Assembly (NCBI GenBank): GCA_039621445.1
Contig: CP154954.1
Coordinates: forward strand, 31,830,012-31,894,011
Source of the DNA: Euglena gracilis
Lineage: Eukaryota
Direction: 5' to 3'
DNA length: 64,000 bases
Under the pieces are notes generated by a model. It did no database searches. It had not been told where the DNA came from and saw nothing but the letters and a program-made list of their open reading frames with translations. The position numbers and the translations under genes are program-made. Numbering within the stretch: the stretch's first letter is position 1; each line of letters starts with the position of its first letter. Below, piece after piece: positions 61,001-62,610 of the stretch.

Positions 61001-62610
61001 AACGGCGACGATGATGAGACACCTCTTTTCGGGGAATGTGAAGGGTAGCAGAGGTCGACATCAAAATTTTGGCGAGGTCGATACCGAAATACCGAAATTT
61101 TGGATAGGTCGATGCCGAAATACCGAAATTTTGGCGGCGTCTCACCAATGCCCAGAGTGCCCAGGGGGATGGGCCGCAGCGGCAAAAAAACACTTCCATT
61201 CTTTTCAAACAAGAGCGTCCCGACCGGGGGGGGGGGTGACGCCAAGGGGCCGCTGGCCCTCCATCTTCATCTGGCACATGATGCGGGAGCTCTCCCGGCC
61301 AGGGCTGCAGGGGAAAGCCTGGCGGGGAGGGGTTGTCGGGACCCCCCCCCCCGACCACCAGGATGGGGGTGGGGGGTCGACCCCCCCCCCATAAGGTTGT
61401 GGGGATTCCTGCACAGCCCTGCTCCCAGCACATCTGCTGCGCCTTGGAGGAGTGCACCGGGAAGCCCGCCCCGCCGTTGGCGAAGATAGTGGCGTTCTCC
61501 GGCACCATGAACACCTGTGGGGGGCGGGGGCAGCACTGCCAGCGGACGAAAGGCTGACTTTCGGAACGTACGCAAATGTAAGCTACGGGGGGGGGGGGTC
61601 TCAGGGGGAAAATTTGTGGCCTGGGTGGATAGCCGGGCCACTGTTTTCTTGCTGGTTTCTTGCAGTTCCCGTGAAATTGCCCGATTCCCATCGCACTTTG
61701 GGGGCCATCCTATGCTCTACCGCCGAACGAAAAGCTGCACAGCACGTGCTGCGCCATCAGCCGTGTTGCAGAGACGGTGCCGTCCCCAGCGGATAATGCT
61801 GCAAGGGCGGGGCCAACCACGCACCGCCTGCTGGCAGGCGCGGCACAGGGCTGGGGAGCACACGGACCTGGGTGCCCAGGGACCGGAGGTAGTCCGCGAT
61901 GGTGGAGAGCGCAGTCGTCTTACCTGCGAGGGAAACCGGCAGGCGGGGAGGGACGTCATGGGTGGGGGGTGGTTCCAGACTGATGGGGGTGGCGGCAGAC
62001 TCCGTGCTGCACCGAAGAGGCGGCGCGGGGTTGCACGGGAAGGTCTGGGGGCCGAACCCCACCCCCACCACAGCACCGCACAAGCGTAAATTCCTTTGGA
62101 GCCGAAGAGAAAATTTAAAAAATTCCCCCCTCAAATCCGTCCTGGTGGGGGGGGGCGCCCACAAGAAATGGGAGAGGGTCGACCCCCCACCCACCACCCA
62201 TATGGGGTTTCAGGCCTGGGATGGGGATGACAAAGAACACAGAACGTTATTATACAACCCAACGGAAGAAGAGCGCCAAAGGGGGAGTCGAAATCATCAT
62301 TGAGCATGGTCCACCGCAAGAGCAGGAATTTCCGGAAGGACGGCACACCCCCACAGGGCCCTCCCGTCAGGACGATCCGGAACACGTGGGGCACCTCCTC
62401 CACCACCTCCGGCTCCAGGACAGATCATTCTCCATAGTTGTGGTGCGTTGTTTGGGTTTGGTGGGGTGGGGGTGGGGGGGGTGGTTAGGGACAGCACGTC
62501 TCCAGGTCCGCGTCGAGGTCCAGCTCCGGCGGCTCATGGATCGACGCCGGGGCCCTCTCGAGGCCGGAGGCGCCAGCGTTGGGCACCACTTGAGGGCTGG
62601 CTCCACGGTG
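52069..62610 (-). CDS. Gene 1: TTD14/NadR-type P-loop NTPase (AAA_28) with CYTH-like C-terminal region; multi-exon, 5' end unresolved
   Basis: Exons: ~62498-62607, 62349-62415, 61868-61923, 61425-61514, 61259-61294, 60502-60597, 59386-59416, 59041-59195, 58590-58720, 56980-57081, 56646-56721, 56338-~56415, 55083-55193, 53550-53741, 52800-52892, 52069-52143 (TGA). Spliced protein contains FRIVLTGGPCGGKTT (Walker A), VFMVPENATIF, VVLCDRGTMDAAAY, RYDAVIHLHSTAIGAEDYYTLSNNQARRE, WKGHPHVEYIDNSTDFPQKI, then SVRVRRQR, EERAIDAKEYFSLLKQ, RRCFEYNDTYFQLDEY and LLLSVE..VTLPPWI. This matches the TRPL translocation defect 14-like family as I recall it; no database search was run. Confidence 0.9.
52229..52395. 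mobile_element. hAT-like MITE (CAGGGCTG TIR)
   Basis: cccagggg|CAGGGCTG ... CAGCCCTG|cccaggga (7/8). Interior is similar to ~54033-54180. Confidence 0.78.
52471..52596. mobile_element. 126-bp hAT-like MITE with perfect 17-bp TIR and perfect 8-bp TSD
   Basis: ggcacggg|CAGGGTTTGATATAAGG ... CCTTATATCAAACCCTG|ggcacggg. Confidence 0.92.
57099..57400. repeat. (ATAC)n/(ATGC)n microsatellite in an intron of gene 1
   Basis: Directly visible. It ends ~17 nt from the CAG acceptor at 57082. Confidence 0.97.
59196..59385 (-). other. Nonconventional intron, N6 variant (GGC CAG...CTG AGGGCC)
   Basis: Stem CAGGGA/TCCCTG. Needed to restore EQMGW|QTDMLREERYDAVIHL. Confidence 0.78.
60598..61258 (-). other. 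Nonconventional intron (GGC CAG...CTG CGGGG)
   Basis: Stem CAGCGG/CCGCTG. Join QMKME|DCFIQIAK. Confidence 0.85.
61295..61424 (-). other. 130-nt nonconventional intron equal to MITE family B (61300-61421) plus 8 nt
   Basis: Plus strand ctcccggc|CAGGGCTG ... CAGCCCTG|ctcccagc (7/8). Join QQMCW|ESSRIM. Confidence 0.9.

Follow-up and report, generated by a model that had tools for sequence, protein, structure and literature searches.

A nonconventional intron of Euglena gracilis coincides with a repeated inverted-repeat element and one copy of its 8-bp duplication

Results

The intron and its host gene

The DNA studied here, referred to as the window, is a stretch of 64,000 nucleotides of the Euglena gracilis genome (assembly GCA_039621445.1, contig CP154954.1, positions 31,830,012 to 31,894,011 of the forward strand). 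On its minus strand it carries the gene of EG_transcript_6081, a protein with an AAA_28 domain, and inside this gene lies a 130-nt intron made up of a 122-bp inverted-repeat element and 8 further nucleotides. The element (61300-61421) is likely a nonautonomous DNA transposon of the miniature inverted-repeat (MITE) kind, inserted at codon 183/184 and spliced out as a nonconventional (NC) intron. The features of the locus, in the order of the gene, are as follows.

61422..61512, minus strand: upstream exon of EG_transcript_6081, ending in ...QQMCW (RNA joint and peptide map)
61422..61429, no strand assigned: right copy of the target-site duplication, CTCCCAGC; the upstream copy on the gene strand, where it reads GCTGGGAG
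61295..61424, minus strand: NC intron, 130 nt, placed by the N3-CAG...CTG-N5 rule
61300..61421, no strand assigned: body of the mobile element, type A, 122 bp, noncoding, with G-run/C-run hairpins and inverted ends (sequence, blastn, profile, and fold)
61292..61299, no strand assigned: left copy of the target-site duplication, CTCCCGGC; the downstream copy on the gene strand
61258..61294, minus strand: downstream exon, ESSRIMCQMKME, whose first base, G, is a purine as the code requires (RNA joint and peptide map)

The host gene was identified with a 52-residue exon query, which was 100% identical to eukprot EG_transcript_6081 (575 amino acids). Sixteen exon cores were then placed on the minus strand, from 62541 to 52072, by exact peptide match to this protein. 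The listing of open reading frames (ORFs) was uninformative for gene finding, the exons being 34 to 200 nt long, and a codon-bias scan (G+C at third codon positions of known exons, 0.95) and mapping of transcriptome proteins were used instead. The AAA_28 domain spans residues 125 to 308 (E 2.6e-26), and the intron site lies within it, between Trp183 and Glu184. All four euglenid homologues found have the site, MCW|ESS, unchanged and without gaps, in a comparison of transcript-derived proteins only. Fourteen introns were placed in the gene between residues 112 and 575, of which eight are GT-AG and six NC; RNA joints cover only the seven introns above 58589, and the others come from the protein map.

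Reads and contigs of a raw RNA run (X21), two transcriptome-like small runs (X15 and X16), and a DNA run (X2) were aligned to 57401-64000; the RNA runs were those bearing the same species label. A skip of 130 nt at the joint 61291->61422 was present in 14 raw reads of X21 with 14 distinct starts and in one spliced contig each of X15 (depth, 330.5) and X16 (depth, 209.1), and it was absent from the contigs of DNA run X2. The same contigs carried six further joints of the minus-strand gene, and the eight exons defined by the RNA joints formed one open frame of 222 codons. The reading frame shifts across 61300-61421, so this stretch must be removed. These results confirm that 61295-61424 is a real intron that is excised from RNA. 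No Rfam family was found in 60000-63000.

The joint slides by 5 nt (both=5), and the intron can be placed anywhere from 61292-61421 to 61297-61426, which gives six equivalent placements with an identical protein. None of the six has GT/GC-AG borders. The code of euglenid NC introns, 5′-N3CDG...CH′GN5-6|R, was defined through knock-in experiments (PMC12501133), and it puts CAG and CTG at +4 to +6 and -8 to -6 (PMC11282704); here and below, cited papers are represented by excerpts of their text. The gene strand reads ...ATG TGC TGG GAG, CAGGGCTG...CAGCCCTG, GCCGG GAG AGC... at the locus, and the placement 61295-61424 (GAG-CAG...CTG-GCCGG, with G as the next exon base) is the only one of the six that fits the rule. 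The 130-nt intron then has CAG at +4 to +6 and CTG at -8 to -6, and the next exon begins with a purine. The exact cut sites are presumably those set by this rule.

The element and its flanking duplication

The ends of the element, CAGGGCTG...CAGCCCTG on the gene strand, read CAGGGCTGCAGG at 61300 and CCTGCACAGCCCTG at 61421 on the plus strand. They form terminal inverted repeats of 8 perfect bases, a 2-nt bulge, and 4 more bases. As RNA, the element is predicted to fold into a hairpin with a minimum free energy of -81.2 kcal/mol (z -2.8), and 1 of 200 shuffled sequences was as stable; the predicted terminal stem pairs the intron ends with 10 + 4 pairs.

The 8-bp flanks, CTCCCGGC and CTCCCAGC, agree at seven of eight positions. 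The upstream copy, GCTGGGAG on the gene strand, provides the Trp codon that is retained in the mRNA, and the TGG kept by the exon is the Trp common to all homologues. Five bases of the other copy (61292-61299) form the intronic N5, including the mismatched base; the single difference between the copies (T versus C on the gene strand) thus falls in what is, under the rule, intronic sequence. The intron is therefore the 122-bp element plus one copy of its 8-bp flanking duplication, end to end. The original prediction, made from the sequence, had taken the whole 130-nt intron between CW and ES for a MITE with a 7/8 target-site duplication. The RNA skip, the copies found by blastn and by profile search, and the flanks all support that reading.

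The spacers of the NC code, 3 nt before CAG and 5 nt after CTG, add up to 8 nt, which is the length of the duplication. Splicing by the code consequently takes out the element together with precisely one copy of the duplication and so restores the target sequence.

Eight base pairs is the duplication length of inverted-repeat elements in the window

The window was scanned for CAG...CTG pairs 40 to 1,500 nt apart with inverted ends matching at 8 or more of 10 positions, and adjacent flanks were counted as matching with at most one mismatch. Among the 556 pairs, matching flanks of 6, 7, 8, and 9 bp were found for 1, 4, 11, and 1 pairs, respectively. When 8-bp flanks were displaced by 3, 5, 10, and 20 nt as controls, there were 0, 1, 1, and 0 matches. 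Eight base pairs is thus the specific duplication length of inverted-repeat elements in this window.

One of the 11 flanked candidates, 45084-46232, was rejected because two exons of another gene, EG_transcript_19837, lie inside it; one false positive is consistent with the controls. Only two of the 11, 61300-61421 and 29697-30033, are flanked on both sides by coding-like sequence. Four are nested in introns (at 41025, 52229, 52471, and 55377), and four lie in unmapped sequence (at 4617, 22736, 25151, and 28901). The ends are CAGGG...CCCTG in six of the 11 and CAGGC in four. Nested elements carry distinct duplications of their own, for example GGCACGGG (8/8), ACCCCCCT (8/8), and CCCAGGG. (7/8). 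Since nested copies keep their own different duplications, the duplication arises when the element inserts, and splicing does not depend on it.

The duplications of three unrelated insertions (52471-52596, 29697-30033, and 44367-45490) look alike on the plus strand (GGCACGGG, GGCA[A/T]GGC, and GGCAGGGC, respectively), and the 3 nt preceding CAG are often GGC or GCC. The similarity may reflect a target-site preference, for which the sites are too few for statistics.

The intron belongs to a family of elements in the window

The search for copies covered the 64-kb window. Its full-length and partial relatives of 61300-61421 are listed below, together with the intron that holds two of them.

43126..43261, no strand assigned: full-length type A homologue, with the CAG end mutated to GGG; nested in NC intron 42970-43865 of EG_transcript_19837
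54389..54473, no strand assigned: reversed type A copy, 3′ two-thirds only; lies within GT-AG intron 53742-55082 of the host gene
52229..52395, no strand assigned: type B sister element, 167 bp, with ends CAGGGCTG...CAGCCCTG and duplication CCCAGGGG/CCCAGGGA (7/8); nested in NC intron 52144-52799
54034..54180, no strand assigned: type B copy, decayed at its 3′ end; lies within GT-AG intron 53742-55082 (5′ end, E 9e-4)
62026..62218, no strand assigned: type B copy, degenerate; lies within GT-AG intron 61924-62348 of the host gene (E 4e-5 for 62142-62210)
52471..52596, no strand assigned: type C element, 126 bp, whose 18-bp inverted repeat and 8-bp duplication, GGCACGGG, are both perfect; lies within NC intron 52144-52799
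52144..52799, minus strand: predicted NC intron of the host gene, N3 + N5, with ends CAGGGTGG...CCACCCTG and flanking 8-mers agreeing at 6/8 (protein map only)

The best blastn match of 61300-61421 in the window was 43128-43261, with 74% identity over 135 columns (E 1.5e-17, 78.3 bits). That score was reached by 0 of 200 dinucleotide shuffles (maximum, 46.8) and by 0 of 200 shuffles of homopolymer-run blocks (mean, 37.5; standard deviation, 4.5; maximum, 52.5). The second match, 52494-52560 (84% over 69 columns, 61.1 bits), was likewise reached by 0 of 200 run-block shuffles. Because the best matches exceed the run-preserving shuffles, the similarity within the family is not an effect of G/C runs. 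At 45.4 bits, the match at 54473-54389 is not significant alone as a pairwise match, since 9 of 200 run-block shuffles scored as high. A profile built from the two full copies (61300 and 43126) and searched in the window with nhmmer under default bias correction recovered 54471-54389 on the minus strand (E 1.5e-9), 52483-52570 (E 9e-8), 52231-52289 (E 2.3e-6), 62142-62210 (E 4e-5), and 54034-54078 (E 9e-4).

In a multiple alignment the copies fell into three types: A (61300, 43126, and the partial reversed copy at 54389), B (52229, 54034, and 62026), and C (52471). Type B has the same ends as type A and an additional A/T-rich insert. Type C shares the core of type A and has different ends. The two full-length type A copies are only 74% alike, and the family is presumably old. 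The copy at 43126-43261 has a poor inverted repeat, and decayed ends are as expected where nothing needs splicing. NC intron 52144-52799 harbours two nested elements, 52229-52395 and 52471-52596. Only one type A copy, 61300-61421, interrupts an exon in the window; besides this copy, one type C relative is a predicted intron of another gene.

These searches bear on what the original prediction had said of relatives. The colinear homologue in another intron was recovered as 43126-43261, and relatedness held for 52229-52395, for the sequence near 54033, and for that near 54390 (nhmmer E 2.3e-6, 9e-4, and 1.5e-9). A further stretch, near 62160-62218, is related (E 4e-5) as part of the degenerate type B copy 62026-62218, but the match is mostly the G-run/TCGAC/C-run core. 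The objection that the family might be nothing more than G/C runs does not hold, given a maximum of 52.5 bits in run-preserving shuffles against 78.3. The view that one family lands in introns and in exons, as an introner does, stands insofar as intron-nested relatives and one exon copy exist; the intron is an NC intron, however, and not that of a spliceosomal introner.

Two observations lie beside the family. A 31-nt tandem repeat (2.4 copies, 61064-61136) lies inside NC intron 60598-61258, and A/T-rich modules like it, containing AAATTTTG...GGC, recur in type B elements. A metagenome scan with a 20-nt degenerate motif of the 3′ end gave 25 loci, none of which matched the profile at E <= 0.01; these were set aside as chance matches.

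Introns private to one of two paralogues

The gene that holds the second full-length type A copy, EG_transcript_19837 (224 amino acids; minus strand, 45900-38634; transcript mapped), is a small gene with no known domain, having no Pfam match above the cut-off. Its paralogue in the window (27458-33500) has exons at 33363-33500 and 27458-27610. Three NC or predicted NC intron positions differ between the two genes, and none of these concerns intron 61295-61424. Two of them are the following.

44367..45490, minus strand: NC intron of EG_transcript_19837, with a 7/8 duplication, GCCCTGCC/GCCCCGCC; absent from the paralogous exon 33363-33500
29692..30036, minus strand: predicted NC intron of the paralogue (homology only), with a 7/8 flanking duplication; contains element 29697-30033, a type C relative

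Element 29697-30033 breaks the reading frame of the paralogue and fits GCC-CAG...CTG-GCCTT|G, and its site is uninterrupted in EG_transcript_19837. Conversely, the site of NC intron 39191-39832 of EG_transcript_19837 (5′ end, CAGGGCTGGCC) is uninterrupted in the paralogue. Judged from sequence, the private introns with 7/8 duplications would most simply be insertions.

Nonconventional introns placed by the rule

Of the six NC introns of the host gene, four fit N3-CAG...CTG-N5. Eleven NC introns were placed by the rule in the two genes, of which eight are N3 + N5, two N3 + N6, and one N3 + N4. Their flanking 8-mers match at 7, 5, 3, 6, 3, 7, 2, 1, 1, 4, and 3 positions.

Two host-gene introns, 56425-56650 and 56724-56985, come from the protein map only and are neither GT-AG nor N3-CAG...CTG-N5; one has a CAG 8 nt inside its border, whereas in the other CAG/CTG is missing and the ends are long, GC-rich, and complementary.

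Other observations on the host gene and the window

At 62419-62499, RNA contigs and reads carry 10 letters that are absent from the window. The window has 3 bases at a point where 4 are required by the mRNA and protein (…LEKELSLEPE…), and it is thus frame-shifted there. DNA depth is only 10.9 in the bin 62241-62460, and the discrepancy at 62419-62499 is either an assembly error or a divergent allele. The window also differs at 61488 and 58381 from every run covering these sites. At 61488 it has A, with G in both contig runs and the DNA run and a mixture in the raw RNA reads (7 of 17 G) that fits heterozygosity or strain differences.

A high-copy repeat at 57401-57840, in GT-AG intron 57082-58589, has a summed DNA contig depth of 66,674 to 73,113, for which low-depth bins of about 50 to 140 serve as the comparison; the RNA runs cover the repeat too (137 to 175 in X15). 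Arrays of TACA/ATAC type fill the first 2.8 kb of the window (1-2800; GC 0.29). Arrays of (CA)n, (GT)n, and (ATAC)75 lie within introns, with simple-repeat stretches at 44678-44990, 48791-49180, 53126-53549, and 57100-57400.

Discussion

The sequence of events that best accounts for the locus begins with a MITE of 122 bp that would have entered the AAA_28 gene at codon 183/184, with duplication of the 8-bp target GCTGGGAG (gene strand). The element would then be transcribed within the pre-mRNA, where its inverted ends may pair and bring the two borders together; the RNA hairpin, as modelled by folding, would be the structure that is recognized. The NC splicing pathway would cut 3 nt before CAG and 5 nt after CTG, and excision would take the element and 8 nt, equal to one copy of the duplication, so that the original reading frame is back. 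The same or sister elements that land in existing introns would stay there and decay. Insertion was presumably carried out by a transposase, possibly a hAT-like one, given the 8-bp duplication and the CAGGG ends as in Ac/Ds, and the direction of change at this site was presumably gain. For the class itself, we regard hAT-like as about an even proposition.

Several results weigh against this account of a transposon insertion. The joint 61291->61422 was present in 0 contigs of the one DNA run examined, X2, and no empty site was thus found. The choice among the slidable placements was guided by the NC rule itself. In the window there are only two full-length type A copies, just 74% alike, and the one at 43126-43261 has lost its CAG and has no recognizable flanking duplication. 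The summed DNA contig depth over the element, 2,046 to 4,472 against about 50 to 140 in low-depth bins, is not a copy number, the high values coming mostly from the short G-run/TCGAC/C-run core. Flanking 8-mers of the 11 rule-placed NC introns agree at a mean of 3.8 of 8 positions, against 2.83 for mismatched partners; from this low mean, most NC introns no longer show a duplication, which would have decayed. The comparison that bears on gain versus loss comprised the two paralogues only. No transposase was found, 0 of the 10 longest non-low-complexity ORFs of the window matching Pfam. The hAT assignment draws on two features only, the 8-bp duplication and the CAGGG ends, and 8-bp duplications are also made by other superfamilies.

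The same failure to find a transposase among the 10 longest window ORFs would suit a family that spreads through RNA, in which an excised and possibly circular NC intron is reinserted by reverse splicing and reverse transcription with no DNA transposase; release of NC introns as full-length circular RNAs has been reported, as cited in PMC11282704 and PMC12501133. An excised intron, however, would bring its old 8 nt along, whereas here each copy has its own target repeat, and in the two cases that interrupt an exon the repeat is made of coding sequence from the interrupted gene. Intron-nested copies in both orientations also have 8-bp duplications. We therefore consider spread through RNA improbable, and we give even less weight to repair of double-strand breaks with filler DNA, in which the direct repeats would be repair microhomology. 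Break repair was proposed for an NC intron of E. agilis gapC with 8-nt direct repeats (PMC4770533), but it gives no reason for a fixed length of 8 bp and leaves the conserved CAGG...CCTG inverted ends unexplained. Nor does it explain filler that is homologous from end to end to a copy 18 kb away, with the similarity stopping at the ends.

Least probable of all, and by our estimate very improbable, is that the similarity is G/C-run low complexity or a segmental duplication and that the intron is an ordinary NC intron without a mobile history. The element is indeed rich in G/C runs, many weak matches in the window consist of runs only, and the match at 54473-54389 was within the reach of run-block shuffles. 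Against low complexity, the two best matches lie above all 200 run-preserving shuffles, and the non-run end modules of the 61300 and 43126 copies align. The flanks of 61300-61421 and 43126-43261 do not align, and the similarity ends at the element ends; unrelated flanks beyond the ends argue against segmental duplication. Insertion of a MITE that is removed as an NC intron thus remains the reading that we prefer.

The intron itself is no different from known euglenid NC introns. Like them, it lacks GT-AG borders, has CAG and CTG at the usual positions with a purine next, has slidable repeat borders, and is removed from mRNA; the pairing of intron ends is also shared, here by predicted fold. 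What the locus adds to them is a family of homologous repeats, some copies of which lie elsewhere than in interrupted exons, and spacers of 3 + 5 nt that equal an 8-bp duplication. The element also resembles the introners of Micromonas and other algae (PMC11282704) in being short and nonautonomous, with inverted ends and a duplication, and in turning an exon insertion into an intron whose splicing removes the element together with the duplicated target sequence. Micromonas introners, however, duplicate 3 nt, and the GT/GC-AG sites that the spliceosome uses are supplied by the element or co-opted (PMC11282704), whereas here the duplication is 8 bp, the borders are noncanonical, and the NC code is hairpin dependent.

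With Ac/Ds, hAT elements, and their MITEs (PMC3260210), the family shares an 8-bp duplication of nearly any sequence, ends of CAGGG...CCCTG type, and short nonautonomous derivatives. In Ac/Ds the ends read C/TAGGGATGAAA ... TTTCATCCCTA, and 8 bp of target are duplicated (PMC3260210). The shared part of the ends is limited to the first 5 nt, and the window ORFs searched, the 10 longest, include no transposase. Transposon-like inverted ends, short duplications, and non-GT-AG borders are also features of noncanonical introns in Amoebophrya, Fritillaria borealis, and diplonemids (PMC11282704, PMC12621601, PMC7789003), with differences in lineage, in duplication length (3 to 5 nt in Amoebophrya), and in end motifs.

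NC introns, their CAG/CTG ends, their border repeats, and a proposed MITE origin were already known. Of E. agilis introns, 71.8% are nonconventional, and short border direct repeats are reported for 84.4% of introns (PMC12501133); the eight-nucleotide direct repeats of the gapC NC intron of E. agilis, described as recently gained, were ascribed to break repair (PMC4770533). A MITE origin of NC introns has been proposed since 2013 (PMC3935182), in a paper whose excerpt states that no transposable elements had yet been identified in euglenid genomes. In the excerpts of that paper and of later ones from 2024 (PMC11282704) and 2025 (PMC12501133 and PMC12621601), this origin is still called a hypothesis, unclear, or assumed; for the noncanonical introns of diplonemids, too, a MITE origin is only assumed. 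We found no paper showing a sequence family that contains an NC intron or the 3 + 5 = 8 link; subscription journals and supplements were outside this search, and either may be in print.

A wider interpretation, which we offer tentatively and hold to be slightly less than an even prospect, is that the NC splicing code mirrors, at the RNA level, a single transposon superfamily. The CAG...CTG stem would correspond to the inverted ends of the transposon, and the 3 + 5 spacers would derive from its 8-bp duplication, so that insertions into exons would be born precisely removable. Most NC introns would then come from hAT-like MITEs active now or recently, and the NC machinery may have evolved or been recruited as a precise-excision system against them.

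The origin of euglenid NC introns has been a question since the 1990s. The locus described here, an RNA-verified NC intron within a repeated element family with an 8-bp duplication equal to the two experimentally defined spacers, is direct sequence evidence for the old idea that the odd introns of Euglena derive from transposons, and it makes the MITE idea countable. Genome-wide, this idea predicts families of NC introns, a peak at 8 bp in the length of border repeats, and an autonomous element with CAGGG ends. The link between 3 + 5 and 8 would account for the register of the NC splicing code.

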